Shown here piece after piece: positions 1 through 17,946 of a DNA stretch of 28,794 bases (positions within the stretch are counted from its first letter, which is position 1; each line of letters begins with the position of its first letter). Position numbers and translations under genes: made by a program. Source of the stretch: Desulfobacterales bacterium (GTDB lineage: Bacteria; Desulfobacterota; Desulfobacteria; Desulfobacterales; UBA11574); the NCBI GenBank assembly GCA_036447975.1, contig JAZFVY010000162.1:1-28794 (forward strand). Reading direction: 5' to 3'. The notes under the pieces are model-generated. The model made no database searches, was not told the origin of the DNA, and worked only from the letters and a program-made list of their open reading frames with translations.

Positions 1-1187
1 ATCTCCATGATCTGGCGGCCGCGGAACTTGCCCCGCATAATGACGTAGGCCAGCAGAGTTCCGACAATGGCTCCTACCAATCCTGCTCCCAGTGAGACTT
101 TGATGCTGTTAATAATGGCGATATTCGATTGGGTATTGAGAATATGATCGGTCACAAAAGTATTATCCACTCCCACAATTTTAACAAATGATCCCAGCAC
201 AATAACGCCGAAACTTAATAGTACCATCATGGCAACCGAGAGACTGATGATCAAAAAGGGGATTTTAATGGCAGGTGCCATCGGTTTGGGTTCGGTAGCC
301 ATTCCTTTACCGGTGATTGTGGCATATCCTTTACCTTTTAACACGTATTTATGGAGAAAAAATATGAGGATACACGGGGTGATGAGAACCACCGAAAGGA
401 CGCTTGCCATATTGAAATCGCCTTCGCCGGTAATCATTAAATAGGTGTCCGGTGCCAGAAAAGGTGTTCGACCGCCCAGAATGGCAGGATTTCCGAATTC
501 AGCGATGGTCATTACGAAAACCAGAAGTGCGGCCTTCAAGAGCCCGGGGGCAGCCAGAGGAATCGTGATTGAACGAACAATCCGCACCTCAGAGGCTCCC
601 ATATCGCTGGCGGTTTCTTCCAGGCTGGGGTTTAACGAATTTAGGACATTTTCAATCATCATGAAAGACAGAGGTAAAAATGCCAGGCACTGGGCCATAA
701 TAACTCCGGTCCAGCCATAAATATTGAAATCCAAATTAAACAGGTTGTTGATTAAACCGTTCCTACCCAAAAGGGTGATCGAAGAAATTGCAAAGATGTA
801 AGGCGGAGCTGCCAGAGGAAGCAATGCAACAATCTTCAAAGGTTTTCTAAGCCGCAGGGGACCACGTGTGGTCAGGTAGGCAAAACAGAAACCGACGATT
901 ACCAAAATCACCATGGTAACTGTTCCCAAAATGAGGGTGTTAATTAGGGACCAGTAGTAAAAATTATAGCTGAAAAACTCGACGTAAAAATCAAAGGTAA
1001 ATCCTTCATCGCCCCAAAAGCTTTTGATCAGGACAGTTGCAATCGGATAGATAAGGAAGATGGCCAAAAGGGCAAAAAGGCCGCCGGCAAAAATATTCAC
1101 CAGTTTGGCATTGAGAAATGCGCGGACTTTATACCACAAACTTCTAGCAGGCACTGGACCTATTACCACTTCGGCCATCTTTACCAT
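1..1187 (-). CDS. ABC transporter permease (FbpB / 2-AEP-type), 3' end runs off the window
   Basis: Hand translation from ATG at 1187 (RBS AGGAGA): MVKMAEVVIGPVPARSLWYKVRAFLNAKLVNIFAGGLFALLAIFLIYPIATVLIKSFWG... It has multiple TM segments, the motif LLPLAAPPYIFA and the EAA loop NPSLEETASDMGASEVRIVRSITIPLAAPG. It is absent from the ORF track because there is no stop in the window. Confidence 0.9.
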   Translation of the reverse strand, partial: MVKMAEVVIGPVPARSLWYKVRAFLNAKLVNIFAGGLFALLAIFLIYPIATVLIKSFWGDEGFTFDFYVEFFSYNFYYWSLINTLILGTVTMVILVIVGFCFAYLTTRGPLRLRKPLKIVALLPLAAPPYIFAISSITLLGRNGLINNLFNLDFNIYGWTGVIMAQCLAFLPLSFMMIENVLNSLNPSLEETASDMGASEVRIVRSITIPLAAPGLLKAALLVFVMTIAEFGNPAILGGRTPFLAPDTYLMITGEGDFNMASVLSVVLITPCILIFFLHKYVLKGKGYATITGKGMATEPKPMAPAIKIPFLIISLSVAMMVLLSFGVIVLGSFVKIVGVDNTFVTDHILNTQSNIAIINSIKVSLGAGLVGAIVGTLLAYVIMRGKFRGRQIME

Positions 1188-1212
1188 ATCTCCTATGCTC
1201 TTTTAACCGGTA

Positions 1213-2286
1213 TTATTGTTTTTGCTTTTTGGCCGCTTCGGCCGCTTTTTTCTCTTTTTCGTCACCAACTCTCTTGGCTTTGGCAGTTTCCTTCATCATG
1301 AACTTGATTTTCCAAGTTTTGATAATTTTGCTGCGGTTCTTGACGGCCCATCCGTGGTCGAGTTTGATGTAAGTCGGTTTAGCCGCGCCATAAAGGGCGC
1401 TGGCAATGCCCGGACGAGGTGGAAAGTATCCAAAAGAAGCAAGGAATTCACTGAATTGCTGAGTGCCAAAATAGTCCATAATCTTCTTGGACAGTTCAAG
1501 TTTCTTGGTCCCTTTGAGAATAACCGTATAGTTGCCCTCGTAACCGATACCCTCAACAGGGATTGTCCACTCGAGAGGATAGCCCTGTTGAATCCGGTTT
1601 AGGACATTCTCATCGGCAGTGATTCCCAGCAAATATTCGCCTCTGCCAACAAGATCGGTAGGGGCATTTCCGCTTTTGGTATAGAAGGCCATGTTCTGGT
1701 CAAGATCTTCAAGGAACTTCCAGCCTTCTTTTTCGCCGTAAAGCTGCAGAAAAGAATAGTTGAGCATAAAAGCGGTTCCCGACGTTCTGGGTGAAGGGGC
1801 AACGATTTGTCCCTTCCATTTGGGATCCAGCAGTTCCTTCCAGCTCATTGGCATGCCCCATCCTTTTTCGGCCAGTTTCTTTTTATTGCCCACCAGGACA
1901 AACGAAAAGGTCCCCAGGGCATACCAGCAACCATCTGGATCTTTGAACACAGGATCGATGTCTCCCCATGAGGGGGCTTGAAAGCACTCATAAATCCCCT
2001 GTTTCTTTCCGATGATCGCTTGGGCAGCTCCGTAGGAAATGACCATGTCGGCATTGAAATTTGGCTTTTCAGTCTGAACCCTGGCCCAACACTCTCCCCA
2101 GGAGAGGGTGATGTGTTTAATTTCGATTCCCAGGTTCTCTTCAACGTTCTTGGCGATGGCCTCATTCACCTCCCGGGAATACCCCATGTAGGCACTGATC
2201 GATTCCTTTGCCTGAAGCCCACTGGAAGCAATGCCAAATGTCAGAACCAACGCTAAAGCTGCAATGATAAAAAGTCTCTTTTTCAT
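1213..2286 (-). CDS. ABC transporter substrate-binding protein (Fe3+/thiamine/2-aminoethylphosphonate class)
   Basis: Sec-type signal peptide and the class motifs SWKELLDPKWKGQIVAPSPRTSGTA and GRGEYLLGI. Directly upstream of the permease. Substrate is inferred from context only. Confidence 0.88.
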   Translation of the reverse strand: MKKRLFIIAALALVLTFGIASSGLQAKESISAYMGYSREVNEAIAKNVEENLGIEIKHITLSWGECWARVQTEKPNFNADMVISYGAAQAIIGKKQGIYECFQAPSWGDIDPVFKDPDGCWYALGTFSFVLVGNKKKLAEKGWGMPMSWKELLDPKWKGQIVAPSPRTSGTAFMLNYSFLQLYGEKEGWKFLEDLDQNMAFYTKSGNAPTDLVGRGEYLLGITADENVLNRIQQGYPLEWTIPVEGIGYEGNYTVILKGTKKLELSKKIMDYFGTQQFSEFLASFGYFPPRPGIASALYGAAKPTYIKLDHGWAVKNRSKIIKTWKIKFMMKETAKAKRVGDEKEKKAAEAAKKQKQ

Positions 2287-2449
2287 CAGGTACCTCCTAT
2301 AATCAAGATTGTTTAACGGTTAATGACCTGAAACAAGGTCAGGCTTCCGTATTGGATGGAAGATCTATTTAGGTCGATATCACCCCCTTTCTTTTAAATT
2401 TGGTTATTGCTTGACGAAAGAGTAACTGATCTGAAGAATATATCTATAT

Positions 2450-2494
2450 ATAAGTCAAACTAAAAAAATCATACTATTAATAATATAAAGTTAT
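2450..2494 (-). promoter_or_regulatory. LysR-type box plus -35-like element for the ABC operon
   Basis: Minus strand ATAACtttatATTAT (2480-2494), 21 bp spacer, then TTGACTTAT (2450-2458). The spacer is one base shorter than in the other six copies. Confidence 0.6.
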
Positions 2495-2506
2495 TTGTGG
2501 ATTCGA

Positions 2507-3553
2507 TCACCGCACCATGTTTACTGGGTATTTTCCGAATCTTCTTGTCGCATCAATCATAGCCAAAAAATTTTCAGGCTTCACGCTTGAATGGATGCTG
2601 TTGCTGGAGGAAAGAATGTGGCCACCGCCTGGAGATGCCGTCGATATACACCTTTCCACTGCTTTGGTTACCTGGTCGGGAGTTCCGTTGGTCAGGAGAT
2701 TCCCGCAGTCTATGTTGCCGATGATGCAAACACTGCTTCCATACATTTTCTTGATCTTTTGAATGTCCATCCCTGCGATGGGGTCAATTGGATTGATTCC
2801 GTCTATCCCTGTTTCTATGATCATGTCCAAGATCTTCATGAGATTACCGTCACTATGTTTTATACAGTATGCACCCATTTCATGGACAACGTCAACTATC
2901 TTTTTTAGCCCAGGAAGGACAAATTCCTTGAAATGTTTTGGGGAAATCATCGGGCCGGTATTATAGGCGTAATCATCTCCAAACATCACTATCTCGGCCC
3001 CAGCTTTAATGGCCTTTTTAACAACCTCTATTTCATAACTCAGGGCCATTTCTGTGATCTCATGAGCAAATTTCGGATTCATTATATAATCGAGAAAAAG
3101 ATTCTCTGTTCCCCTGAGATACCTCGGATTGCTCAGGGCATCACGATTCTCCCAAATAATTGCTTTTTCCCCCTTGAACCTTTGAACTAGTTCGAGAAAA
3201 GGACCAAGAACATCAGGGTCTTCGGGGTCTGGAGGAATATATGACTTTAGATCCTCTTCGGACTCGATGATCCCTTCAACGGGGTATGCAATGGCTTCAC
3301 CGGTATAAACCCTGGTAATTCCCCATTTATCCTTGAATTTATACCCCGGTTGAACATCCCCATCATGACCCGACAATGTATGCTCATATCCCAAGGCGAC
3401 ACCATCCATCCCTATTTTCTCTAAGAAGTCAAAATAAGAACAGCCTGGATAGATGGCATTTCTTACTTTTGGATCGATACTCCACTCCAACATCGGAACC
3501 CGATCAGGTTCTCTCCGCTCAAGGGATACAAAGATCAGATCTCGTGAATTCAT
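2507..3553 (-). CDS. Uroporphyrinogen decarboxylase-like / methylcobalamide methyltransferase-family protein
   Basis: Motifs EPDRVP, DKWG, FGDDYA...GPMISP..FKEF, KHSDGN, IIGNID and PGGGHILSSSNSIH; 348 aa; RBS AAAGGAG. It lacks the HxC zinc motif of methanogen MtaA/MtbA. Confidence 0.85.
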   Translation of the reverse strand: MNSRDLIFVSLERREPDRVPMLEWSIDPKVRNAIYPGCSYFDFLEKIGMDGVALGYEHTLSGHDGDVQPGYKFKDKWGITRVYTGEAIAYPVEGIIESEEDLKSYIPPDPEDPDVLGPFLELVQRFKGEKAIIWENRDALSNPRYLRGTENLFLDYIMNPKFAHEITEMALSYEIEVVKKAIKAGAEIVMFGDDYAYNTGPMISPKHFKEFVLPGLKKIVDVVHEMGAYCIKHSDGNLMKILDMIIETGIDGINPIDPIAGMDIQKIKKMYGSSVCIIGNIDCGNLLTNGTPDQVTKAVERCISTASPGGGHILSSSNSIHSSVKPENFLAMIDATRRFGKYPVNMVR

Positions 3554-3788
3554 TATAGACTCCTTTGGATTTAGTTTCGTAAAAAGGCCTATCTGAATGT
3601 TTTCCTACAACTTCTTGCCAAGCTCGCTTGTCAGTGTCAGCGATGGTAATCGTCTGAAAACTAGTAATTCTGCGTGTGCCGCGCATACATTTATCGATTA
3701 AAGGATAAGCACCTTACCACCTCAATGTTCGTTCCTCCTCGAAATGGTGCTCGAATCTTTTTTGGACAAAGGTGATATAATTTAATAA

Positions 3789-3834
3789 ATAAGTCAAAAT
3801 AATTAATATTATATTTTTAATGATAAATTGTTAT
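3789..3834 (-). promoter_or_regulatory. LysR-type box plus -35-like element for the URO-D-like gene
   Basis: Minus strand ATAACaatttATCAT (3820-3834), 22 bp spacer, then TTGACTTAT (3789-3797). Confidence 0.65.
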
Positions 3835-4125
3835 AATATTGATCGATCGGGTTTGTTATAAATTATGCTGATAATACCCGAATTTTACTTGTTCTTAAAA
3901 ATATGTTCCGATTGAGTCGTTTCGTTCATATTTTAATAAGCCGCCGGATGATTTAGTTTATGTCGGGAAGCTGTCTGAATAAATTAGAGCGCATTAAAGA
4001 GAACATTTTCAAAGTGATTCAATTTGGAGAATAAAGTCATGTTGCCACACGATATATTTAAAGCCATAGATAGGCCCCAGCAGTAATAGCAGCCAATTGG
4101 CTTTCTGCTTTTAAAATGAAGCACT

Positions 4126-4767
4126 CTATTTTCTTGCAATGAGCATTCTTGCCTGTTTGACAGCTTCTGCGGCATCCTTCCCATAGCCGTCAGCACCAAT
4201 TTCTTCTGCAAATCTTGCGTCAATAGGCGCACCCCCAACCATAACTTTAACACTTTTTCGCAATCCATTATCCTTTAAAGCCTCGATCACATTTTCAATC
4301 TCAGGCATCGTTGTTGTTAACAATGCGGATAATCCAAGGATGTCAGGCTTAATCTCTTTTATTTTTTGGATCAATTTTTCAACAGTGAGGTCTACACCCA
4401 AATCGATTACAGCGTACCCTGCCCCTTCCAACATAATAATAACAAGGTTCTTGCCGATATCGTGCAAGTCACCTTTGACCGTACACATAATGATCGTGCC
4501 GTTTGCTTCAGTCTCTTCAGGTTTCAAGAGAGGCTTAATGAGAGATAGACCCTTTTTCATGGTAATGCCTGAAGCAAGCATCTCTGGTATGTATATCTCA
4601 TTGTCTACAAATTTCTGGCCAACAATATCCATCGCGGCAATCATGGCATTGTTTATTATTGCATTCAGGTTTGTGCCTTCATTGATCGATGCCTTGACCA
4701 AACTCTCTATCTCTTTATGCTTTCCACTGACAACTGCCTCTTTAATATCCCCTATATTATTACTCAT
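4126..4767 (-). CDS. Corrinoid (B12-binding) protein, MttC/MtbC/MetH-cap type
   Basis: N-terminal cap domain (AMIAAMDIVGQKF..NEIYIPEML), B12 motif TVKGDLHDIGKNLV (DxHxxG), LGLSALLTTT and VMVGGAP. Confidence 0.95.
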   Translation of the reverse strand: MSNNIGDIKEAVVSGKHKEIESLVKASINEGTNLNAIINNAMIAAMDIVGQKFVDNEIYIPEMLASGITMKKGLSLIKPLLKPEETEANGTIIMCTVKGDLHDIGKNLVIIMLEGAGYAVIDLGVDLTVEKLIQKIKEIKPDILGLSALLTTTMPEIENVIEALKDNGLRKSVKVMVGGAPIDARFAEEIGADGYGKDAAEAVKQARMLIARK

Positions 4768-4923
4768 TGCCTTTATCCTTTCTCGATATAATGCTAATAT
4801 CCTTCATGGAAGGCCAAAACAATTATCTGTCAAATTAATTATAACAAATCGGAGAGAGATTCAATTTGCTGGTCCAACTCCTTCCATTTCGGCATGAGCC
4901 CAACGCAATCGTCACGGGAAAGT

Positions 4924-6099
4924 TCATGCTCCATAAGCAGCTATATCCTCGATTTTTTTATGTATTATGATGCCGCGTTCGGCAAGTTCTGTGAATACCG
5001 CTGAGGGTTCAAAAGCCAGTTCAGGAGCCACGACACCAGACCCGCGAAACTGGCCATGGGCGATCATCTGGGCACCGATACTCATGGGGATGCCCACACA
5101 GCGTGTATAAGCACGCAGCTTTTTCCATCCTTTTACTGAGCCGTCCGAGGCGGGATGGGTGTGGGTGAGGATATGCCGGTACTTTTTCCCCTCACAACTG
5201 CCGGTAACCTCCACGTGCAGCGCGTAACCGTAAAGATCGGTAGTCTGCCCCTCTTTGGATTGCAGAAGATGGCCAGCGATGGCATCCATGATCCTCACCT
5301 GGGTGCCGTCCACTTCGATTTTGTCGTTACGCATAAAACCCCAGTCATATAGGGTGCGAATCAGCACCATGTTTTTGGGCGGCCAGGTACCGCGCACTTC
5401 GATCAGTTGAATCTGTTTATCTGCCAGCGACTTTGGAAGGGTCATGGTTTCAGCATGAGGAATGATGTACTGGGTATGGGTTCCGTATGGAAGCGGCAGT
5501 TCGATTTCTCTGGGACGAGCAAAGGGCGGCACCTGAACAAATTTTCCGTTTTCGTATACCACGCGAGAGGGCAGATCGGGATCGTACTCAATCCGTGTGG
5601 TCTCGGCGATTGCCGGTGAAAAAGCCACCGGCCGGAAGGCACCGTGACTGATACGAATGGTATCCACCGTCTCCAACTGATCGGCGACATGCTTGGCCAT
5701 CAGGTTCGTAATTCCAGGGGTCATCCCCATGCCGGGGACACAGACTTTGCCTTTGTCTGAAAATTGGCGATCAAATTCCCATTCCGCCCCACAACCGTTG
5801 ATGTTGATACCATGTACACCGGCGGCAGCAATACAGGCAGTGGAACGGTCATTGAGGGAGATGGTGGTACCGTCCATGACCAAATTATAGTCCTTAAAAC
5901 TGGCCACCGCCGCCTGATGATCGTTAACATCGATCTTGAGAAAATCCACGCGGGGGTCATCAAGCCACTTTACCACCTCCTGGCCCGCATCTTCATTATA
6001 GTCGGCGATAGTAATTTTCTCGAAATCTGAATATTCCACAAGATCATAGGCCGATTCTCGGCTGATTTTACCAGCGGCCCCTAAACATAAAATTTTCAT
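4924..6099 (-). CDS. Saccharopine dehydrogenase-family NAD(P)-dependent oxidoreductase
   Basis: Rossmann start MKILCLGAAGKIS...ITIAD, plus PGMGMTPGITN, HAETMTLP and a C-terminal TRCVGIPMSIGAQM..G...G.GV.APE; 391 aa. Confidence 0.88.
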   Translation of the reverse strand: MKILCLGAAGKISRESAYDLVEYSDFEKITIADYNEDAGQEVVKWLDDPRVDFLKIDVNDHQAAVASFKDYNLVMDGTTISLNDRSTACIAAAGVHGININGCGAEWEFDRQFSDKGKVCVPGMGMTPGITNLMAKHVADQLETVDTIRISHGAFRPVAFSPAIAETTRIEYDPDLPSRVVYENGKFVQVPPFARPREIELPLPYGTHTQYIIPHAETMTLPKSLADKQIQLIEVRGTWPPKNMVLIRTLYDWGFMRNDKIEVDGTQVRIMDAIAGHLLQSKEGQTTDLYGYALHVEVTGSCEGKKYRHILTHTHPASDGSVKGWKKLRAYTRCVGIPMSIGAQMIAHGQFRGSGVVAPELAFEPSAVFTELAERGIIIHKKIEDIAAYGA

Positions 6100-6431: not shown

Positions 6432-7187
6432 ATGGGTTCAAATTATCGCAGGAAAATTCCAAAACATGTACAGATCTATCAGTGGTTGCGTGCTATGATC
6501 GCCAAGGGGGAAATCAAACGTGGCGACAAACTCCCCACCGAGATCGAACTGTCCCATATGTTTGCGGTTAACCGCATGACAGTACGCAAGGCTATGGATT
6601 CTCTGGTGTTTGATGCGATGGTCATCCGCCGGCCGGGTAAAGGAACTTTTCTGACCTCCGAGAAACCCAAGGATTTAATCTATACCCTGAAAAACATCAC
6701 CAGTTTTGGTAATGACATGCAAAGCGTCGGGATACAGCCTACCTATCAGGCCGTTGAGGTGAAAGTAATCCAGGCGGACGGCGAAGTAAGCAAGATGTTG
6801 AAACTGAAAAATGACAAGCGGGCCATTTATTCCCTGCGAGTGTTGCATGCCAACGATAAACCGGTACTCATCGAGAAAAGCTATCTTCCTTATTTCAAAT
6901 TCAAAGACATTCTAGATATGGATTTTAATACAACTCTTTATCAGATTATCACGGAAAAGTTCGGTATCGCATTGGATCATGCTACTCAGTGTTTGACGGC
7001 GGAGTTCCCAGGAGAAGAAGAGACCAGAATATTCGGCCTGCCCGAGCCCTGTCCCTGCATGAAGATGGAAACTGTGGTGTACGATCCCCACAACTCTCCG
7101 GTGGAGGCCCTTTTCGCCTACTATCGTGGAGATAAGTATAAATTCAAATTCAAGGCGGGGCACTATATTCGCCATTCGAACCAGTAA
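6432..7187 (+). CDS. GntR family transcriptional regulator, HutC/UTRA subfamily (PhnF/PhnR-like)
   Basis: wHTH IPKHVQIYQWL...GDKLPTEIELSHMFAVNRMTVRKA...RRPGKGTF and a UTRA C-terminus (LRVLHANDKPVLIEKSY, YRGDKYKF). Confidence 0.95.
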   Translation: MGSNYRRKIPKHVQIYQWLRAMIAKGEIKRGDKLPTEIELSHMFAVNRMTVRKAMDSLVFDAMVIRRPGKGTFLTSEKPKDLIYTLKNITSFGNDMQSVGIQPTYQAVEVKVIQADGEVSKMLKLKNDKRAIYSLRVLHANDKPVLIEKSYLPYFKFKDILDMDFNTTLYQIITEKFGIALDHATQCLTAEFPGEEETRIFGLPEPCPCMKMETVVYDPHNSPVEALFAYYRGDKYKFKFKAGHYIRHSNQ

Positions 7188-8181: not shown

Positions 8182-9270
8182 CTATTTGAATATCCAGGCC
8201 GCTACCTCATGATTCGATATGGGTAAGATAGATGTCGGTCCCGGGCCATAGCCGACAATCGGGATCGCTCTTTCATGCAGCGAACCGTGGGACCGGACTT
8301 TGACCGTTTCCCTTGAGTTGGGCAAAGCCCCGAAAACCGTATCCCTGTCGGCCAACACAAAAAGATGCCCAATACGATGGGGATGGAGCCGGTATCTCTT
8401 TGCAGCTTCCGTGTTCGAGAAAACAGCTTCAATGCCCTGCTCCCAACGAAGGAGGGCCGAAGCTTCATCAATGGCAGACAGGTCATCCAGATAAATATAT
8501 GCAGCGCCGCCAAGATTCTGGTGATGGACGACATAACGATCTTTGATGATCGGGATGGCGTTTGCCGAAATCCCGGCATCTTTTAATATCCGGGTTAAAT
8601 CGAGTGCCAGGGTCTTTGGATTCATGCCATGGTCGGCCGTTACCACGATTTCAATATCCGATGCAACATTCAAGAGATCCCCGAGCAGACGATCAAGCCG
8701 GTTCATGTTCCATTGGGATTGGTCAGAATCAGGGGATAGCATATGATTGGCATAATCGGTTGTCGTTAAATAAAGCAGGTCGGGAGATTTTTCTGCAAGT
8801 ACTGTCCTGGCGGCACGGAACAGCCAATGATTAACCTCTATGGAATAGATATCCGGTGGCGCGCCGATTCGATCCACAAGCCAGGCCGAAGGCCTTTCCG
8901 CCGTCTCGGCAAGGGTTGCGCCGTCTTGGATTAAGGTTTTAAGTTTTTCTTTAGCGGTGAGAAGGGCCGATTTTCCGCCGGTTTCGCCAACCCGGCGAAA
9001 TATGGTCTCAGCCAGCAGAAATTCCGAGGATTCCATGTAAACTTCTTTTCCCGTTGACGGATCGAGAAAATAGTTGGAGGTAATGCCGTGGGTTTCCGGA
9101 AAACTTGCCGTGACAATCGTTGAGTTGTTGACATTGGTAACACTGGGAATGATCGCCTGGCCGGTTGTGCCAAATCCCTCCCGTGCGAGACTATCCATGT
9201 TCGGTGTTTCACTTTGGTCCAGATATTCGGGGCCGCAACCATCCAGACAGATAATGATCTTTTTTGTCAT
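8182..9270 (-). CDS. phnA: Phosphonoacetate hydrolase (alkaline phosphatase superfamily)
   Basis: PhnA signature motifs ICLDGCGPEY, PSVTNVNN (Thr nucleophile), TAKEKL, LYLTTTDY.NH, VTADHGMN, DRYVVHH and RSHGSLHE. Confidence 0.9.
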   Translation of the reverse strand: MTKKIIICLDGCGPEYLDQSETPNMDSLAREGFGTTGQAIIPSVTNVNNSTIVTASFPETHGITSNYFLDPSTGKEVYMESSEFLLAETIFRRVGETGGKSALLTAKEKLKTLIQDGATLAETAERPSAWLVDRIGAPPDIYSIEVNHWLFRAARTVLAEKSPDLLYLTTTDYANHMLSPDSDQSQWNMNRLDRLLGDLLNVASDIEIVVTADHGMNPKTLALDLTRILKDAGISANAIPIIKDRYVVHHQNLGGAAYIYLDDLSAIDEASALLRWEQGIEAVFSNTEAAKRYRLHPHRIGHLFVLADRDTVFGALPNSRETVKVRSHGSLHERAIPIVGYGPGPTSILPISNHEVAAWIFK

Positions 9271-9349
9271 GGTGTTTCTCCGGTTATTTTTCAGGCGAAA
9301 ACGTTTATTCTTTATAACTTAGCTAACAAACTTATTTCAAAGCCGGCTC

Positions 9350-10738
9350 CTAATAAAGCATGCCCTGTTCAACTTCACCGATTGTTTCATCCAAGATATC
9401 AAGCGCGCGGTCCATCTCCTCCCGGCTGATAACCAAGGCCGGTCTTAAGGTGATGATATTTCCTTCAATGGTCTTGAACGCAAGCCCTTTCTCCATGCAC
9501 TTATACATTATAATTTCCGCTTCATCAATAGCCCGTTCTTTCGTTTTTCTGTCCTTAACCAAGTCTATTCCTATGTGCAGGCCTACGCCTGACACGCTGC
9601 CGATAAGGGGGTGCGTTGCCTTCATATTATTCAATCTTTTGAGGGTATATTCTCCGAGTTCGGCGGCATGGGCATCTAGTCCGTTTTTTTCGATATACTC
9701 AATTTCAGCAAGGGCGGCAGCCGAACAAAGTGCGTTTTTCTCATGGGTGTAATGTCCGATTGATCGATCCTGGCACACATCATAGCATTGCCGAGTAACT
9801 ATCCCTGCAAAAGGAACAAGCCCGCCACCCATGGATTTCCCGAGAACGAGAATATCTGGTGTCAGGAAATGTTCACTGGCAAACATCTTTCCGGTTCGGC
9901 CGAATCCTTCAATGATCTCATCAAAGATCAGCAGTGTGCCATACTGCTCGCATAAGGTTTTTACACCCTCCCAATATCTTGCACTGGGGACCACCGGAGC
10001 CGCTGAGATGGGCTCCCCGACTATAGCGGCCACGCCCGGCTCCCTCTCCAGTATCAGCTCAATCTGCCTGAGGCACTCGGCATCCACATCTTCTTGTCTT
10101 TTAAAGCCCCAGGGATTTCGATAATAATTGGGAAATTCAACATGCAATGCACCCGGCATCATGGGCCCCATGCCGCCTTTGAAGTGCTCTTCCCCACCAA
10201 TGCTGGCGGCCGCGAACCCGGCACCATGGAATGAATCCCAAAATGAGATGGTTTTGAAATTTCCTGTTACCTGCTTTGCAAGCGCTAAGGCCATTTCAAC
10301 GGCCTCAGAACCTCCAGGGCAGAAAAGCGATTTACATAAATCTCCCGGAGTTATCTCTGCCAGTTTTTTAGCCAAACTGACAGTGGGTATATTTGTATAC
10401 CTTCTGGGGCAAAATGTCATCTTGGCATCCAACTGCCTTTTTACCGCTTGAATAACTTCGGGATTATTAAATCCTGCATTATGAACGCCGTTGCCGTGCA
10501 TATCGATATATTTATTCCCGTTAATATCTTCGATATATATGCCGTGGGCCCTGGACAACACATTTAATACCGGAGTCGACAGGCTCTGATGCAAAAAATA
10601 CTTGTTATCTTCGTTAAAAATGTCTCGGGTCTGGCCCAATAAATTCCTGTCCCAATATTTTTTCCTGTTCGGCGTTGTGTTTACATCTCCTTGCTCTCTT
10701 TCAATACGTTTTTCTTTTTTCATTTGTTGCATCCGCAT
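9350..10738 (-). CDS. Class-III PLP enzyme, PbfA-like paralogue
   Basis: EQGDVNTTPNR...HQSLSTP...GIYIED...MHGNGVH, SFHGAGF, FDEI, PLP lysine in LGKSMGGG, and GHYTHEKN. Same subfamily as 11026-12384 but divergent at several conserved positions. Confidence 0.85.
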   Translation of the reverse strand: MRMQQMKKEKRIEREQGDVNTTPNRKKYWDRNLLGQTRDIFNEDNKYFLHQSLSTPVLNVLSRAHGIYIEDINGNKYIDMHGNGVHNAGFNNPEVIQAVKRQLDAKMTFCPRRYTNIPTVSLAKKLAEITPGDLCKSLFCPGGSEAVEMALALAKQVTGNFKTISFWDSFHGAGFAAASIGGEEHFKGGMGPMMPGALHVEFPNYYRNPWGFKRQEDVDAECLRQIELILEREPGVAAIVGEPISAAPVVPSARYWEGVKTLCEQYGTLLIFDEIIEGFGRTGKMFASEHFLTPDILVLGKSMGGGLVPFAGIVTRQCYDVCQDRSIGHYTHEKNALCSAAALAEIEYIEKNGLDAHAAELGEYTLKRLNNMKATHPLIGSVSGVGLHIGIDLVKDRKTKERAIDEAEIIMYKCMEKGLAFKTIEGNIITLRPALVISREEMDRALDILDETIGEVEQGMLY

Positions 10739-10829
10739 TTAAGCCTCCTTTATATCTATATCCATAATCGAAAGAATGGCATGATTTTCTTATATTTCCG
10801 TCGCATTAAGGATAATTTAGGAGGAATAC

Positions 10830-10875
10830 CTAAATCAAGCTAAATTATTTAATAGATTTTATAACCGCAGGTGAT
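10830..10875 (-). promoter_or_regulatory. LysR-type box plus -35-like element for the pbfA-like/phnA/EamA operon
   Basis: Minus strand ATCACctgcgGTTAT (10861-10875), 22 bp spacer, then TTGATTTAG (10830-10838). Confidence 0.6.
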
Positions 10876-10902
10876 ACGAATTTTTCCGATGTTGACCTGG
10901 AG

Positions 10903-10948
10903 ATAACTTTTCGTTATTAATGACATGATAATTATTTCTTTGACTTAT
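10903..10948 (+). promoter_or_regulatory. LysR-type box plus -35-like element for pbfA
   Basis: ATAACttttcGTTAT (10903-10917), 22 bp spacer, then TTGACTTAT (10940-10948). Confidence 0.7.
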
Positions 10949-11025
10949 ATTATATAGGGTATAAAAATATAAATTTAAGGATACACGACAAAATCTTCAT
11001 AATATTAGAGTAATGGGGTTGGATT

Positions 11026-12384
11026 ATGGATAAGTTGCACAAATCCGAAGGCGATATTAACATTTCCCACAGGCGGGACAGATGGCAGGCAGAGAACCTC
11101 GTCGACGAGACTCGATCTCTTTTGGCGGAAGACACCCGCTACTTTCTTAAACAATCACTTTCAACACCATGCCTGAACGCCATACGAAAGTGCGAGGGCA
11201 TCTATATAGAAGACATACAGGGCCGGCGATACATGGACTTTCACGGAAACAATGTCCATCAAGTCGGCTTTGCCAACCCGGACGTCATTGAAGCCGTCAA
11301 AAAACAGCTCGATGAACTTTCCTTTTGTACCCGGCGGTATACCAACCGCATTGCCGTGGATCTGGCCGGGAAGCTGGTCAATATCGCTCCCGGCGATTTG
11401 AACAAGGTGTTATTGTGTCCGGGAGGAACGGGGGCTGTAGGCATAGCCCTGAAGCTCGCACGGATTGTTACCGGCAGACACAAAACGATATCCATGTGGG
11501 ATTCGTTCCACGGGGCTTCCCTGGACGCCATCTCCATCGGCGGCGAGGCTGTTTTTCGTCAGAACATTGGCCCCCTGCTTCCCGGCACCGAGCATGCGCC
11601 GCCGCCTGACGAGTATCGCTGCGTTTTTGGTTGCCAAAGCCGCGGCGGCTGCGATCTGACGTGCGCAAAATACGTTGAGTACATCCTCGAAAAGGAAGGA
11701 GACATTGCCGCGGTGATATCCGAACCGGTTCGCAGCACGCCTTTTATTCCCAAGCCCGAATACTGGCAAGCAATCCGCCGCGCCTGCGATCGACATGGCG
11801 CTTTGCTCATCTTCGATGAAATCCCCCATGCATTGGGTCGTACCGGCAAAATGTTTACGTTTGAAAACTTTGGCGTGGTGCCGGATATGGTCGTTATCGG
11901 CAAAGGCTTGGGCGGAGGTATTATCCCCCTGGCCGCGTTAATTGCCCGTGAAGACCTGGACGTGGCCGGCAACCGGGCATTAGGACATTATACCCACGAA
12001 AAAAACCCGGTGGCCTGTGCAGCGGCCCTGGCCACCATTGAATATATCGAAAGGCACGAGCTGGCGGCCCATGCTCGTAAACTGGGACAATACGCGCTGA
12101 TGCACATGAAGGAAATGATGAAGCGGCATCCGTTGATCGGGGACGTACGCGGACTCGGTCTTCTTATGGGGATAGAACTGGTGAAAGACAGGATAACCCG
12201 CGAGCGGGCCAGTGACGAAGCCGAGGCTGTTATGTATGCCGCTCTTTCAAAAGGCCTGAGTTTTAAACTGACCATGGGGAACATCATTACACTAACACCG
12301 GCCCTGACCATTACACATGATGAGATGGATACCGCTCTTAACATCATCGATAACTGTATCACCACAGTCGAGAAGGGGGCATGA
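11026..12384 (+). CDS. pbfA: (R)-1-hydroxy-2-aminoethylphosphonate ammonia-lyase (class-III PLP fold)
   Basis: Matches recalled PbfA motifs: SEGDIN, QSLSTPCL, EGIYIED..G..YMDFHGNNVHQ, WDSFHGASLDAISIGGE, IGKGLGGG, LGHYTHEKNP and EAEAVMY..L..GLSFK. Phosphonate gene context agrees. Confidence 0.85.
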   Translation: MDKLHKSEGDINISHRRDRWQAENLVDETRSLLAEDTRYFLKQSLSTPCLNAIRKCEGIYIEDIQGRRYMDFHGNNVHQVGFANPDVIEAVKKQLDELSFCTRRYTNRIAVDLAGKLVNIAPGDLNKVLLCPGGTGAVGIALKLARIVTGRHKTISMWDSFHGASLDAISIGGEAVFRQNIGPLLPGTEHAPPPDEYRCVFGCQSRGGCDLTCAKYVEYILEKEGDIAAVISEPVRSTPFIPKPEYWQAIRRACDRHGALLIFDEIPHALGRTGKMFTFENFGVVPDMVVIGKGLGGGIIPLAALIAREDLDVAGNRALGHYTHEKNPVACAAALATIEYIERHELAAHARKLGQYALMHMKEMMKRHPLIGDVRGLGLLMGIELVKDRITRERASDEAEAVMYAALSKGLSFKLTMGNIITLTPALTITHDEMDTALNIIDNCITTVEKGA

Positions 12385-12526
12385 GGCGCTTGCTGTTTAA
12401 AGGCTGGATCAAAGGCTTGAAACAATAATGCGAAGCGTTTTCTATCTTATTGAAGAATGAGCTTTATTCTAATATATTGTCTGCGAACTATCAGCCAACT
12501 CTTACAAAAACCGAAGGAGCACGAAC

Positions 12527-12936
12527 ATTATTAACCTTAGTGTCAACGTCAACAGGGTCGCCACTTTGCGTAACGCCCGAGGGGGGGGACGAGCCGAGCG
12601 TTGTCCGGGCCGCTCGCACCTGCATTGAGGCCGGATGCCAGGGAATTACCGTTCATCCCCGAGAGGATCAGCGCCACATCCGTACCGGTGAGTTCACGAT
12701 ATCGCCGCCATGTTATCTTCGAGTATAACATCGAGGGGGATCCTATGCCCGATCTGCTTGATTTGGCCATGGAAATCCGTCCTGCTCAGTTCACACTCGT
12801 TCCAGTCGAACCGGGAGAGATTACCTCGCACCACGGCTGGAACATCCAAAAGGACGAGAAAATTCTGAGTTTCGCTATCGAGCGCTTAAAAAAAGAAGGC
12901 ATCCGTGTGAGCCTTTTCATGGATGCAGATGCCAGC
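12527..12936 (+). pseudogene. pdxJ: Pyridoxine 5'-phosphate synthase remnant
   Basis: Three frames join to give (I)[19 protein letters not shown] / [32 protein letters not shown] / EYNIEGDP...QFTLVP...TSHHGW...GIRVSLFMDAD. The start codon reads ATT after RBS GAAGGAG. Frameshifts lie at the G8 run 12581-12588 and near 12690-12720. The C-terminal part is missing. Confidence 0.9.
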
Positions 12937-13180
12937 TGTTTACGCTCATTTAGGGTACAATATCTTTGTCCCTTGGAATGTGGACTTCCAACGACGCTAT
13001 CTGTTGTATGGGTAATTCCGGGCTAGTTACCGGTTTTTATGAGAGATCTATATAAGGAAAAGGGAGGTTACGTCAATTCTAATCCACACTATTAATAATA
13101 GTTTTGTAAAAGCAGGTGATATGTATTTAAAAAGAAAAAATGTGAAGAAAAATAGACAATTTTACATTGGAAGTTATAAA

Positions 13181-13381
13181 ATGAACGAGCCGGTCAATGA
13201 AGTTGAAATAATTCTTCGCTCAATGAAAGGAATTCTGGATATCGCCTGGCTTTTCAAAGAAGACCGACATCAGGTCATGCACCTGGAAAAACAGATCGAC
13301 AGTACGGCACCTCGGGACCTGGGTGAATATATTAATGAGGGTATCAAAAGCGTCTTCGGCAATATTCAGTCTGTCGTCTGA
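13181..13381 (+). CDS. Hypothetical protein or gene fragment colliding with the truncated acsE
   Basis: MNEPVNEVEIILRSMKGILDIAWLFKEDRH...NEGIKSVF has protein-like composition. Its 3' end overlaps the acsE remnant tail to tail. No family recognised. Confidence 0.35.
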   Translation: MNEPVNEVEIILRSMKGILDIAWLFKEDRHQVMHLEKQIDSTAPRDLGEYINEGIKSVFGNIQSVV

Positions 13382-13770
13382 GGCATACCTTTATCACTCA
13401 TGCACAGGGAGACTATCTTGAAGTCAGTGCCTGCAACCAGGAGCAAAAGAGCATTGTAGCGCTCCTTCTCAAGGGAGATAGAGTTGATCATAGGTGTACC
13501 TCGGTGGACCGTCAATACAGCTTCAATGGCCTTGGGATCGGGGCTGTCAATGCAACACGGCGCGTCAACGACCTCCTGGATCGTGACGACGAGCCACTTT
13601 AAGTCCTCGGCCTCCTTTCCGACAAAAATTCCCGCGTTTGCGTCGATGAAGTCTGCTCCGGCCTCCCTTTGACCTTTAGCCACTTTCTGAATGGCTTCAG
13701 CATCTTGAGCTTCAATTGCATCGGAAATGACTTTACGGCTGGCATTGATGAGCTCTCCTACGATAAGCAT
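13366..13770 (-). pseudogene. acsE: Methyltetrahydrofolate:corrinoid methyltransferase (AcsE/MeTr, pterin-binding), N-terminal half only
   Basis: MLIVGELINASRK, GADFIDANAG, CIDSPDPKAIEA, MINSISLE and LCMSDKGMP. It stops at 134 aa, about half the usual length. The shifted frame continues RLNIAED, then homology is lost. Confidence 0.85.
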
Positions 13771-13854
13771 TCTTAATTCCTCATAGGTTTATCTTTGTTG
13801 TTAGAAGCCAAATGGGGTTTTTTTCTTTTTGGCATTGTATCTGGTAAACCCACG

Positions 13855-14511
13855 TCAGTCTCGTTGACTCAGCAGCCTCTTGATAAGATCAACCGCGTCA
13901 ACAGCGGTCTTCCCGAATCCATCGGCTCCGATTTCATCAGCCCACTGCTGGCTGACCGGCCCACCGCCTACAATCACAAAATACTCATTGCGCAAGTTTT
14001 TCTCCTCAAGTATTTCAATGATCTCCTTCTGGGACGGCATGGTTGTAGTCATCAACGACGACAAGGCGATAACGTCGGCCTTAACCTTTCTGGCCTCTTC
14101 GATAAAATTCAGAGAAGGAACATCAACGCCGATGTCGACCACGGAAAAGCCGTTGGTCTTCAAAACCATGGATACGATGTTTTTGCCAAGGTTATGAACA
14201 TCACCCTTAACAGTCCCGATGAGCACCGTACCGGCCTTGGGGATCTCTTTGTTCTGGGCTTCAATTTCAGGCATCAGGATTTCCATGGCCGCGTTGAAGG
14301 TTGCGGCTGCCATCAAAAGTTCAGGCAAAAAGGATTCGCCCTGCTCAAAACTTTCGCCAACAATTGCCATTCCTTTGGAAAGCCCCAGTTCCACTACCTC
14401 TAAAGGATCAATATTGGCCTTAAGTGCGTCTCTGGCACTCTCCTGGATCTTATCCTGATCTCCATCGATAATGGATATGACTATATTTTTCATGAATTGT
14501 TTCTTACTCAT
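13855..14511 (-). CDS. Corrinoid protein, MtmC/MttC-like
   Basis: GLSKGMAIVGESFE.GE.FLPEL, GTVKGDVHNLGKNIV (DxHxxG), ALSSLMTTT, VGGGPV and IGADG. Directly downstream of the MtmB homologue. Confidence 0.95.
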   Translation of the reverse strand: MSKKQFMKNIVISIIDGDQDKIQESARDALKANIDPLEVVELGLSKGMAIVGESFEQGESFLPELLMAAATFNAAMEILMPEIEAQNKEIPKAGTVLIGTVKGDVHNLGKNIVSMVLKTNGFSVVDIGVDVPSLNFIEEARKVKADVIALSSLMTTTMPSQKEIIEILEEKNLRNEYFVIVGGGPVSQQWADEIGADGFGKTAVDAVDLIKRLLSQRD

Positions 14512-14543: not shown

Positions 14544-15917
14544 TTATTCAAAAGGAATTCCCATTTCAGCCAGCTCTTCTTTTATCTCATGGTACAGCCG
14601 TACATAGGATTCGCCGGGTTTTCCCGTAACGACGTCGTAGCATTCCTGGTAACGGTTCCCGTCCGGGGCGGTTTCAATCTGGGATTCGTATTTTTCAAGA
14701 AGTTTGATGACCAGTGCGTTGGCTTCTTCCCGATTGAGCTGACAGGCAGCCTTGCCCATCTCCACACCGAATTTCGCTTCCATTGGAGTGATGCCGTCAA
14801 TCTTTACGGCCTTAAAGGGATGGGGTGTCTGAACCGCCGGGGCTCCGGATGTAACCGCACAAAGCAGGTGCGCAGCAGCTTCATAGAAATAGGTTTTTGT
14901 GTTGGGACCGCTTGCCATATATCCCAGCCAAATCACCGGCATGGGAATGTTCCGGCTGGCAGCCTGGCAGCTTGTCGATACTACCCAAAGGACATCTCTA
15001 TTTATAGAACAACCGTTTTTGAAATGGACCGGGAAACTGAGTTGGTAATTGCCCTTTTGCACTAAAAGACCCATGAGGATATAGGCCGTGCTCACCACCG
15101 CCGTTCCGGCCGGGCCGCCGCAGTAACCTCCCAACACGGGTGCTGTCTCCGCTCCCACATTTGCTCCCCAACTATGCAGGTAAGCGACCTTGTTCAGGGC
15201 TCCAAAATCTATCTTCATCTCGGAAAGTGCCCCGCACAACCAGCCATCTGTAGTACGGAGTCCAAACTGGGGGGCGCTTGCCGCAATGGTTGTTATAGCT
15301 GCTGCTGCCGTTGAAATAAGATTCATGATCGGAAGGCCCGGTCGCCCGGCCCGCCTGAGCGCTTCCCGGCCGATTTTGATCCCCCGGATGGCTGCATAAA
15401 ATTCCGCCGGAGAACCTGCCATGGCCGGAATTCCGCGGATGCTTTCCAAAGCTGAAATGCTGATGGAGTTGGCCTCGGAGATCGATCCGTATGCCTCTAT
15501 CAGATTCGTTGCCATTTCTTCGGATGTGGCCACGATTCCCGATCCCACATGAAACCAGGGGCGTTTCTTCTCATCAGGCCGCCGCATCCCAAACACGCAG
15601 GCCTCTTTGCCCTCGCCGGCAAAACAGCGGCCGGGAGCCTCCCTCAACACCTCTAGTATTTCCTCCCGGCTGAACTGGATTATCCGGTAAGTATCCTGGC
15701 AGTAAACCCCTACTTGACTCATGAAATCAACGGCAGCCTCGAACAAATTATCGGCCGCCATGTCATCTGAGGGAACCGGGTTCTCTTTGTTATAGTGAAT
15801 TCCGTAACGCTTAACCACCTCGTTGAGCCGGGGAATAAATACCTTGATGTCGAATTCCTCTTCGCTCATGATAGGCCCTTTCAACGCTCTCTCGTAAACA
15901 TCCAGAAAATTCAGCAT
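14544..15917 (-). CDS. Monomethylamine methyltransferase MtmB-family protein without pyrrolysine
   Basis: MtmB-like N-terminus (DVYERALKGP...FD...YGI), AGRPG, EMKID, P..GGY.GG, AGP.T and C-terminus A.DG..YQECYDV.T..P..Y..Y...KEEL..MG..F. The true start is probably ATG 15917 (RBS AAGGAGG), not 15944. The frame has no amber codon. Confidence 0.9.
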   Translation of the reverse strand: MLNFLDVYERALKGPIMSEEEFDIKVFIPRLNEVVKRYGIHYNKENPVPSDDMAADNLFEAAVDFMSQVGVYCQDTYRIIQFSREEILEVLREAPGRCFAGEGKEACVFGMRRPDEKKRPWFHVGSGIVATSEEMATNLIEAYGSISEANSISISALESIRGIPAMAGSPAEFYAAIRGIKIGREALRRAGRPGLPIMNLISTAAAAITTIAASAPQFGLRTTDGWLCGALSEMKIDFGALNKVAYLHSWGANVGAETAPVLGGYCGGPAGTAVVSTAYILMGLLVQKGNYQLSFPVHFKNGCSINRDVLWVVSTSCQAASRNIPMPVIWLGYMASGPNTKTYFYEAAAHLLCAVTSGAPAVQTPHPFKAVKIDGITPMEAKFGVEMGKAACQLNREEANALVIKLLEKYESQIETAPDGNRYQECYDVVTGKPGESYVRLYHEIKEELAEMGIPFE

Positions 15918-16089
15918 ACCTGTTCCTCCTTGACAATATGGCACTAAGATCCTGACCTTTCAGGTAACATCTCCCCTCTGGTACATTTTCAACCTCTTTA
16001 TTATGGCTTTCCAGTTGAAAGCCCTTTGCAATGCGAAAATAATTTCTCCTCAGAAAAAAACTTGTATTAACATTAATTTTATGAAAAAT

Positions 16090-17110: not shown

Positions 17111-17946
17111 TTAAGGATAAATTCCCCTCAGTTCGGTAGCCTTGGCAACGCGGCCAACCCCCAAGATATGGGCAGCAGTGCGCATATGCCCTTTCTTTTC
17201 CCGGGAAATTCTCAATACTTCATCAAAAGCCTGTGTCATAATCTTGTGCAGACTCTCGGAAACTTCTTCCTCAGGCCACAGGAGTTCCTGGAGATTTTGT
17301 ACCCATTCAAAGTAGGAAACCGTTACGCCGCCGGCGTTGGCCAGGATGTCCGGCACCACGAAAATTCCTCACTCAAAAAGGATGTCGTCCGCTTCCGGGG
17401 TTGTGGGGCCGTTGGCTCCTTCTACAACCATACGGCACTTTAACCCGGGTGCGTTCTCAGCCGTGATCTGATTCTCCAGGGCAGCCGGGACTAGAATATC
17501 ACAATCCAGTGCCAGCAGTTCTTCATTGCTAATCTCATCTCCTTCCGCTTCGTGGCTTAAAAAGCACTTATAGCGGTCTTTGCAGGCCGAGGCTTTTTCA
17601 ATGTCGAGTCCGTTTGGATTAAAAAGCCCCCCTTTGGCCTCTCCGAAGGGAATATTGACCACCGCTGCTTTCCAGCTCATCCGCATGGCAAGCGCCTTAA
17701 TTTCGTCTAAATCCACGTCAGGATGATACCGAATTCCTCCCTTGGCCGGTCCGCGAATATCGCTATGAACCACACGATAACCCGTAAACATTTTTAGACT
17801 CCCGTCATCCATTTTACGGGGAAATGAACGATCAGTTCCCGTTTTGTCTGGCTGAGTTTTTCCAGGAGTCCTTCGTCACAAGCCAAATATTGGCTAGCAA
17901 TGTTGCCCTGCTGCCTGGCCATTTGAAACGGATTCATCTTTTCCAT
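17111..17946 (-). pseudogene. Glu/Leu/Phe/Val dehydrogenase (glutamate dehydrogenase) remnant
   Basis: Start ATG 17946 (RBS AAGGAGG): MEKMNPFQMA...[11 protein letters not shown] -1 frameshift lies in the A-run at about 17813. Then MDDGS...GYRVVH...[12 protein letters not shown]...AKGG is joined in frame to LFNPNGLD, so the central region is deleted. An in-frame TGA at 17369-17371 falls in [19 protein letters not shown]. Confidence 0.92.

Follow-up and report, generated by a model that had tools for sequence, protein, structure and literature searches.

N-methylated aminoethylphosphonates (AEPs) are abundant head groups in the lipids and glycans of marine invertebrates. The only enzymes known to open them are the flavoproteins PbfB, PbfC and PbfD, which need oxygen or an unidentified acceptor, and those published hydrolytic routes that could run without oxygen do not handle N-methyl-AEP (PMC10590968). 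Together with PbfA and PbfF, these flavoproteins are the known accessory enzymes of AEP catabolism (PMC10590968, PMC12366243). Here we analyse a gene for a saccharopine-dehydrogenase-family oxidoreductase, termed SDHL, on contig JAZFVY010000162.1 of a Desulfobacterales bacterium (assembly GCA_036447975.1); the whole 28,794-nucleotide stretch that was analysed is referred to as the window. Our analysis revealed that SDHL recurs inside AEP hydrolytic clusters of six or more phyla. We propose that it is an NAD+-dependent C–N dehydrogenase whose substrate is N-alkyl-AEP, perhaps also AEP, and whose products are phosphonoacetaldehyde and an amine, a reading for which belief and doubt are about evenly balanced.

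N-methyl- and dimethyl-AEP are turned into phosphonoacetaldehyde and methylamines by two FAD enzymes, PbfC and PbfD, for which AEP is a substrate too (PMC10590968). Like SDHL, they are accessory enzymes recurrent in AEP hydrolytic clusters, and the reaction demonstrated for them is the one proposed here for SDHL. In contrast, they are DAO-family proteins with another fold and cofactor; no DAO (FAD-binding) domain was found among the Pfam matches of SDHL, and PbfC does not accept NAD(P)+ (Zangelmi et al. 2023, PMC10590968). As an analogue of PbfC/PbfD, SDHL would rely on a nicotinamide cofactor and need no oxygen; the resemblance is functional at most. PbfF is likewise a nicotinamide-dependent accessory enzyme found through its recurrence in AEP clusters. 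It is an NAD-dependent racemase of hydroxylated AEP (HAEP) that belongs to PF02826, is confined to Alphaproteobacteria and acts on a C–OH centre (Ruffolo et al. 2025, PMC12366243). Since PbfF belongs to PF02826, we rejected the identification of SDHL as PbfF.

Carboxy(nor)spermidine dehydrogenases share with SDHL the two-domain fold, the Pfam domains and an NAD(P)-linked interconversion of amine and aldehyde. They differ in sequence (17–19% identity), in their Ser-Arg site and in their polyamine context, whereas the setting of SDHL is catabolic and phosphonate-linked. L-lysine dehydrogenase (3abi) and saccharopine reductase (1ff9, 1e5l, 2axq) belong to the same superfamily, share the fold and take a terminal -CH2-N group to the aldehyde, but they are 13–19% identical to SDHL, act on substrates other than those proposed for it and lack its invariant Arg/His/Ser set.

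The gene that follows SDHL encodes a corrinoid protein, CorrA. Its closest described counterparts are MtqB/MtqC (PMC13044021), MthB/MthC/MthA/MthK (PMC12155760) and the pairs of a URO-D-type methyltransferase and a corrinoid protein: CorrA has both of their B12 domains as well as the DxHxxG motif, and the gene that comes next is of the URO-D family. None of the described corrinoid methyltransferase systems contains a saccharopine-dehydrogenase-family enzyme or acts on a phosphonate, and full-text literature searches returned no relevant paper linking the saccharopine-dehydrogenase family with phosphonate metabolism or with the MttB superfamily. New here are a lineage-specific SDHL–corrinoid–URO-D operon under a conserved, predicted GntR operator, a clade-restricted link to methylamine-type methyltransferases, and a parallel pair formed by a saccharopine-dehydrogenase-family (SDH) paralogue and an MttB-family gene.

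Sequence, fold and cofactor site of SDHL

The interval 4126–6099 is filled exactly by two minus-strand open reading frames (ORFs):
4924–6099, minus strand: SDHL, an NAD(P) oxidoreductase of the saccharopine-dehydrogenase family (391 aa), which opens the predicted operon and is the candidate (N-alkyl)aminoethylphosphonate dehydrogenase
4126–4767, minus strand: CorrA, a 213-aa methyltransferase-cognate corrinoid protein with PF02607 (58.7 bits) and PF02310 (100.7 bits)

SDHL has an N-terminal Rossmann NAD(P)-binding domain (PF03435, 52.6 bits; Pfam cut-off 25.1) and a C-terminal Sacchrp_dh_C domain (PF16653, 69.6 bits; cut-off 31). Its AlphaFold2 model (pLDDT 96.3) matched solved members of the superfamily in Foldseek with probability 1.00 and TM-scores of 0.73–0.82. 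The best matches were carboxyspermidine dehydrogenases (PDB 8deb, 8h4z/8h52 and 4ina; TM about 0.8), followed by L-lysine dehydrogenase, the saccharopine reductases and homospermidine synthases; identity is 13–19% across all structural matches. These relatives all oxidise -CH2-NH-R to an aldehyde or imine with a nicotinamide cofactor. The original prediction had ascribed C–N chemistry to the family, and the Foldseek matches agree with it, the reactions of the matched enzymes being general knowledge.

In the alignment, the cofactor site is marked by the glycine motif GAAGKIS and by Asp33. At the end of β2, SDHL carries this residue in an Asp-Tyr pair, where the NADP-dependent carboxyspermidine dehydrogenase has Ser-Arg, the 2'-phosphate site. 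The replacement suggests that SDHL prefers NAD+. In all 85 orthogroup sequences, from every clade, 48 polar residues are invariant. Among the invariant residues, Arg149, His152, Arg195, His313, Ser318 and Arg329 are specific to the orthogroup and absent from the wider family, and this Arg/His/Ser set would fit an anionic substrate.

The automatic names of SDHL relatives, “lysine 6-dehydrogenase” and “saccharopine dehydrogenase”, together with a weak match to the carboxynorspermidine synthase model, would suit a routine enzyme of lysine or polyamine metabolism whose position near phosphonate genes is accidental. However, the match to this NCBIfam equivalog (NF043000) reached only 34.9 bits against a cut-off of 800, domain annotation found no polyamine or lysine genes among the window ORFs, and the linkage to phosphonate genes recurs in six or more phyla with differing gene orders and regulators. 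A role of this kind is already disfavoured and, in our view, highly improbable.

Phosphonate gene neighbourhoods of the SDHL orthogroup

The protein collection contains more than 1,200 SDHL relatives, the top 120 of which are all at least 65% identical. From the species-level genome collection, in which 344 stretches encode SDHL relatives, we took the best 80, which are 61–94% identical to SDHL and come from Desulfobacterota, SAR324, Planctomycetota, Verrucomicrobiota, Acidobacteriota, Bacteroidota and Bacillota. The next full-length relatives outside the orthogroup are at most 38% identical (50%-identity library), and their neighbourhoods are unrelated to phosphonates and uninformative. The orthologues are not confined to anaerobes, being present in Brevibacillus and Aneurinibacillus, which are aerobic, and in Terracidiphilus. 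Within the window's class (401 genomes) SDHL is rare and patchy, occurring in 10 genomes of 10 genera.

For the neighbourhood survey, ORFs were called in 82 non-redundant loci (prefix L) and clustered, and recurrent clusters were annotated. The AEP-type ABC importer, PhnW, PhnX and PbfA were counted as phosphonate markers. One or more of these markers lie near SDHL in 52 of the 82 loci; among the 45 loci whose flanks reach 5 kb or more to both sides, the count is 31. The linkage of the orthologues to phosphonate genes is thus as anticipated. The recurrent neighbours were:
AEP-type ABC importer: 34/82 loci
PhnX-type HAD protein: 28/82 loci
PhnW, including a 648-aa PhnX-PhnW fusion: 25/82 loci
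DeoR regulator: 21/82 loci
PbfA: 18/82 loci
LysR regulator: 17/82 loci

Gene order varies among phyla, and SDHL stays within the operon. The order is SBP-ATPase-permease-PhnX-PhnW-SDHL-DeoR in Brevibacillus (SBP, solute-binding protein) and PhnX-MFS-PhnW-SDHL in Terracidiphilus; elsewhere we found PbfA-SDHL-ABC, and also PhnX-PbfA-PbfA-ABC-SDHL, where PhnW does not occur within 10 kb. Operons that combine PhnX with SDHL but lack PhnW fit a product entering straight at PhnX, namely phosphonoacetaldehyde, and operons with both PhnW and SDHL fit a substrate closed to the transaminase, that is, a secondary or tertiary amine. No DAO-type gene was recurrent in the neighbourhood clusters of the 82 loci. 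In the window's class, PbfA is carried by 9 of the 10 SDHL-positive genomes versus 39 of the 391 others; co-occurrence counts of this kind are given without a p-value, related genomes not being independent.

In Brevibacillus (L059:8032–9978, and also L075, L076 and L083) the PhnX-PhnW fusion, composed of a HAD domain and a class-V aminotransferase, lies directly upstream of SDHL. In several Brevibacillus/Bacillus loci, genes for BMC shell proteins, an aldehyde dehydrogenase and PduL come next, and these look like a microcompartment-style set handling acetaldehyde made by PhnX.

The same gene contents bear on AEP itself as the substrate. SDHL could be a deaminating AEP dehydrogenase resembling L-lysine 6-dehydrogenase (AEP + NAD+ + H2O -> phosphonoacetaldehyde + NH4+ + NADH), independent of pyridoxal phosphate and of an amino acceptor, which would duplicate or replace PhnW. 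Such a reaction agrees with the fold match to L-lysine dehydrogenase 3abi and with the loci of Syntrophaceae (L004, L017, L024, L025) and Anaerovoracaceae (L046, L047, L055, L069) in which PhnX accompanies SDHL with no PhnW within 10 kb; PbfD enzymes oxidise AEP as well (PMC10590968). However, PhnW stands in the same operon at 25 loci, often directly upstream of SDHL, Brevibacillus carries the fusion, and the window's genome has a PhnW-like gene too. Pure redundancy would not be expected to keep 61–94% identity across phyla, and the methyltransferase neighbours described below would be left unexplained. A deaminating role is therefore possible but unlikely.

The PbfA-like genes next to SDHL in 18 loci, and the two PbfA-type lyases in the window (both above the NCBIfam cut-off), are also consistent with an enzyme that breaks no C–N bond. 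SDHL would then oxidise or epimerise a hydroxylated phosphonate, as an analogue of the HAEP racemase PbfF or as a 2-hydroxyethylphosphonate dehydrogenase, and feed PbfA or PhnX. PbfF provides a precedent for an NAD enzyme recruited to serve PbfA (PMC12366243), but its family is unrelated to that of SDHL, no alcohol dehydrogenase or racemase ranks ahead of the C–N oxidoreductases among the structural matches, and in Bacillota and Acidobacteriota SDHL is often found in operons lacking PbfA. We consider a hydroxyphosphonate substrate improbable.

Methyltransferase neighbours and the corrinoid link

A quick IQ-TREE tree of SDHL, from which the duplicate records L005–L007, loci without SDHL and matches shorter than 330 residues were omitted, placed most methyltransferase-linked loci together. 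Within one clade, which has 100% SH-aLRT support, 10 of the 22 members have an MttB-, MtmB-like or URO-D-type gene next to SDHL, versus 1 of 63 outside it. Only three fixed positions set this clade apart from the other sequences, one being residue 103, with Cys in place of Phe. Residue 103 (window positions about 5791–5793), located in the invariant N99-x-N101...E106 loop, is Cys in 19 of the 22 clade members and Phe in 63 of the 63 others, and may be a specificity switch.

MttB-family genes adjoin SDHL in five loci, three with an in-frame TAG (pyrrolysine, Pyl) and two non-Pyl. In the Desulfohalobiaceae loci (L031:7406–8965, L033:11211–12680 and L084:5328–6437), MttB lies directly downstream of SDHL in phosphonate-transporter (PhnDCE) operons and has one in-frame TAG at codon 355, the expected pyrrolysine position. 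L014 and L019 combine SDHL with a non-Pyl MttB and have no phosphonate marker. An MtmB-like/corrinoid module was found near SDHL in the window, L021, L084 and L077; in L077, a 71%-identical fragment of the window's MtmB homologue and a gene resembling that of the window's second corrinoid protein (CorrB) adjoin LysR-SDHL. At the genome level, MtmB-like genes occur in 6 of 10 SDHL-positive genomes versus 20 of 391 others in the window's class, and within PbfA-positive genomes in 6 of 9 versus 9 of 39. This recurrent side-association is a hint of N-methylated substrates.

The window has two methyltransferase genes that bear on this question:
14544–15944, minus strand: non-Pyl MtmB homologue, with the second corrinoid protein CorrB
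2507–3553, minus strand: URO-D/MtaA-CmuA-family protein (PF01208; TIGR01463 E = 7e-29, below cut-off)

MtqB, the first and only characterised non-Pyl MtmB homologue, demethylates tetramethylammonium and choline (PMC13044021), and MthB, an MttB-family enzyme, demethylates phosphocholine (PMC12155760). Because these enzymes act on quaternary amines and phosphocholine, trimethyl-AEP would be a reasonable substrate for the methyltransferase modules of the window; since MtqB takes quaternary amines, it is at least as likely as monomethyl-AEP for the MtmB homologue.

CorrA retains the His-on cobalamin motif DxHxxG, read GDLHDIG. It stays below the curated cut-offs (TIGR02370, 186.9 versus 215.3 bits; MtgC models, 205.7 versus 370) and is, by its sequence, a relative of MtgC/MtbC and not an assigned member. 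The presence of a corrinoid gene after SDHL is limited to its closest relatives, namely L101, L102 and probably two further short contigs. About 95% of the SDHL loci have no corrinoid gene at all, including L010 and L003, whose SDHL proteins are 86% and 87% identical to that of the window. In L010 and L094/L095, a URO-D orthologue directly follows SDHL with no corrinoid gene; L003 lacks both, and L101 keeps URO-D. A homologue 71% identical to CorrA is part of a methyltransferase cluster of the form URO-D/URO-D/corrinoid, suggesting that CorrA is the carrier for the URO-D enzyme and not for SDHL. The URO-D protein at 2507–3553 is its probable methyltransferase partner. We rejected a corrinoid protein that serves SDHL directly because SDHL so often occurs without one. 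The original prediction had methylamine from the dehydrogenase handed to the corrinoid protein; this part is not supported, since hardly any of the orthologous loci have the corrinoid gene, the CorrA homologue pairs with URO-D, and the MtmB homologue is non-Pyl, like MtqB with its quaternary amine substrates. The check that it named, conservation of the neighbourhood with phn and corrinoid genes, came out positive for the phn genes, whereas the corrinoid genes are restricted to the closest relatives.

From these contexts we propose that SDHL would act as an accessory enzyme of AEP catabolism, moving a hydride from C2 of an N-substituted AEP onto NAD+. N-methyl- or N,N-dimethyl-AEP would be its most likely substrate, with AEP itself as a further possibility. 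The imine or iminium product would be hydrolysed to phosphonoacetaldehyde and a free amine, and the phosphonoacetaldehyde would pass to the C–P-cleaving enzymes of the window:
21249–21974: HAD/PhnX-like protein
22062–23453: acylating aldehyde dehydrogenase

In this lineage, SDHL would head a GntR-repressed operon of SDHL, corrinoid protein, URO-D-type methyltransferase and AEP-type ABC importer. As to the division of labour, demethylation of the more highly methylated forms would fall to two pairs, the URO-D enzyme and CorrA on the one hand and the MtmB homologue and CorrB on the other, and the dehydrogenase and methyltransferase activities would be alternative or successive ways of handling N-methylated AEP under anoxia. 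If this is true, a nicotinamide-dependent enzyme explains how anaerobes of sediment, gut and soil, and also aerobic Bacillota, recover phosphorus and nitrogen from N-methylated AEPs, and the saccharopine-dehydrogenase superfamily gains a new substrate class. Brevibacillus and Aneurinibacillus are culturable carriers of SDHL.

A wider scheme can be put forward tentatively. SDHL, as an oxygen-independent, NAD+-linked N-alkyl-AEP dehydrogenase, and recruited corrinoid methyltransferases (the non-Pyl MtmB homologue, MttB-family enzymes, and URO-D with CorrA) may form the first anaerobic pathway for N-methylated phosphonates, in which trimethyl-AEP first loses methyl groups to become a tertiary or secondary amine and SDHL then cuts the C–N bond, yielding phosphonoacetaldehyde; the SDH paralogue and its non-Pyl MttB might do likewise for another quaternary amine. 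Trimethyl-AEP is the phosphonate analogue of phosphocholine, and the pairing of SDHL with corrinoid methyltransferases in one clade gives experiments a way into its anaerobic catabolism.

Several observations weigh against an N-alkyl-AEP dehydrogenase. The whole orthogroup is biochemically uncharacterised, and residue-level transfer is unreliable because identity to the characterised enzymes is so low. About a third of the long-flank loci (14 of 45) have no phosphonate marker within 10 kb. In most SDHL operons PhnW is present and a methyl-handling gene absent, which would suit plain AEP or a different N-substituted AEP just as well. The three Desulfohalobiaceae loci pair SDHL with a Pyl-type MttB, the known substrate of which is trimethylamine; this pairing misfits because a dehydrogenase cannot release trimethylamine from a quaternary amine. 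In the window, the only pterin-binding methyltransferase is truncated, and corrinoid methyltransferases that strip methyl groups down to AEP would make an N-methyl-AEP dehydrogenase redundant there. In L021, SDHL adjoins a choline/ethanolamine-kinase-like gene and not phosphonate genes, which suggests a phosphoethanolamine-type substrate.

The L021 locus (Planctomycetota; 459–4133 and 8238–14140) contains, apart from SDHL, an MtmB-like gene and genes for a corrinoid protein, a pterin methyltransferase and a B12-activation-like protein. Besides the kinase-like gene it carries a GlpA-like DAO/BFD protein and a HAD phosphatase, and it resembles the MthK/MthB phosphocholine logic more than a phosphonate cluster.

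SDHL might accordingly cleave another 2-aminoethyl-phosph(on)ate conjugate: N-(2-hydroxyethyl)-AEP, an opine-like N-(carboxyalkyl)-AEP, or N,N-dimethyl-phosphoethanolamine, the demethylation product of phosphocholine. The last fits L021, in which the coupling of SDHL, the kinase-like gene and the MtmB-like/corrinoid/pterin-methyltransferase module mirrors the MthK/MthB pathway for phosphocholine (PMC12155760). The nearest folds, saccharopine reductase and carboxy(nor)spermidine dehydrogenase, take bulky amine partners, and L014 and L019, with their non-Pyl MttB and no phosphonate marker, are in keeping with such a conjugate. However, the dominant context of SDHL is PhnW, PhnX, PbfA and AEP-type importers, and the 48 invariant polar residues common to every clade argue for one substrate class. 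We know of no free opine-type AEP conjugate in nature. Such conjugates seem to us quite unlikely substrates, and N-alkyl-AEP is preferred.

Two further methyltransferase loci lie elsewhere in the organism's own genome. In L002 (contig C392), the SDH-family paralogue (1488–2633, minus strand; 381 aa, 25% identical to SDHL) is 76 nt upstream of the non-Pyl MttB-family gene (2–1411, minus strand). The same pairing was seen in 4–5 of 6 further genomes from this class; PbfA and an MtmB-like gene are present in all 7 carriers. In L091 (contig C244: 200–1582), an MttB with one in-frame TAG is 53% identical to the L031 enzyme, and the organism probably uses pyrrolysine.

Regulator, predicted operon and phosphonate island of the window

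A divergent regulator gene precedes SDHL, and putative operators lie in the 332-nt divergent region between them:
6432–7187, plus strand: GntR/UTRA (HutC/PhnR-like) regulator with PF00392 and PF07702
6135–6146: putative operator O1, the perfect palindrome TTGTATATACAA
6316–6327: putative operator O2, TTGTATATATAA, a one-mismatch copy within the invariant block TATATATACAAAGTCAA, on the regulator-proximal side

Regulator orthologues adjoin SDHL in L010, L003 and L011 (72–77% identity), and in L101 and L102 too. The TA-rich operator was found by direct pattern search and alignment. Both TGTATATACA elements and the TTGAC -35 box are conserved upstream of SDHL in L010, L003 and L011, the other loci of the genome collection with an orthologous regulator, and the motif is thus conserved in four loci. 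The count of TGTATATACA in the window is not above chance (17 of 100 shuffles reach 3 matches), and the operator claim therefore rests on position and conservation. A promoter-like pair, TTGACT (6179–6174) and TATAAA (6157–6152) with a 16-nt spacing, was read by eye, and O1 starts 5 nt downstream of it; the consensus promoter scan, the rule of which demands T at the last -10 position, did not list this pair. The placement of the predicted operator O1 would suit a repressor that blocks initiation. The exact fit of the two ORFs, the regulator domains and the conserved TGTATATACA support the arrangement first described, a dehydrogenase gene and then a corrinoid gene on the same strand behind a GntR-type operator.

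Downstream of SDHL, the remaining features of the operon are:
4768–4923, minus strand: SDHL–CorrA spacer of 156 nt
1213–2286, minus strand: PhnS2-like solute-binding protein of an AEP-type ABC importer (TIGR03261 E = 1e-53, below cut-off)
3–1187, minus strand: PhnU2-like fused permease (TIGR03262 E = 8e-57, below cut-off), cut by the window end

SDHL and CorrA are probably co-transcribed, as judged from the gene arrangement. About 125 nt of the spacer is an insertion common to the window and L101 and absent from L102 in the alignment; in L102, SDHL and the corrinoid gene are 31 nt apart. No terminator-like site was found on the minus strand of the spacer, and its RNA fold is unremarkable (z = 0.13). 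L101, whose SDHL is 96% identical to that of the window in the tree alignment and whose corrinoid protein is 92% identical, has the same order, GntR <> SDHL-corrinoid-URO-D-SBP-permease-ATPase. A PhnS2-like gene downstream of SDHL is conserved in L101, L010 and L003.

The 572-nt gap between the URO-D and corrinoid genes (3554–4125) is AT-rich and non-coding, with several AT-rich palindromes, and contains no Rfam match and no Pfam-bearing ORF. Rfam gave zero matches over the whole window, so no riboswitch was found in the long spacers.

Gene fragments occur further along. The pterin-binding methyltransferase (13366–13770, minus strand) is reduced to its N-terminal half, residues 5–140 of about 269, and a second half was not found in the window. 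A PdxJ fragment (12601–13026, plus strand) abuts it, and a glutamate-dehydrogenase fragment (17369–17812, minus strand) lies further on. These fragments are gene remnants or assembly breaks in this metagenome-assembled genome of 525 contigs. The rest of the window is a phosphonate island, which includes genes for an EamA protein, a PhnA-like hydrolase and a PhnW-like protein together with citrate-synthase-like genes.

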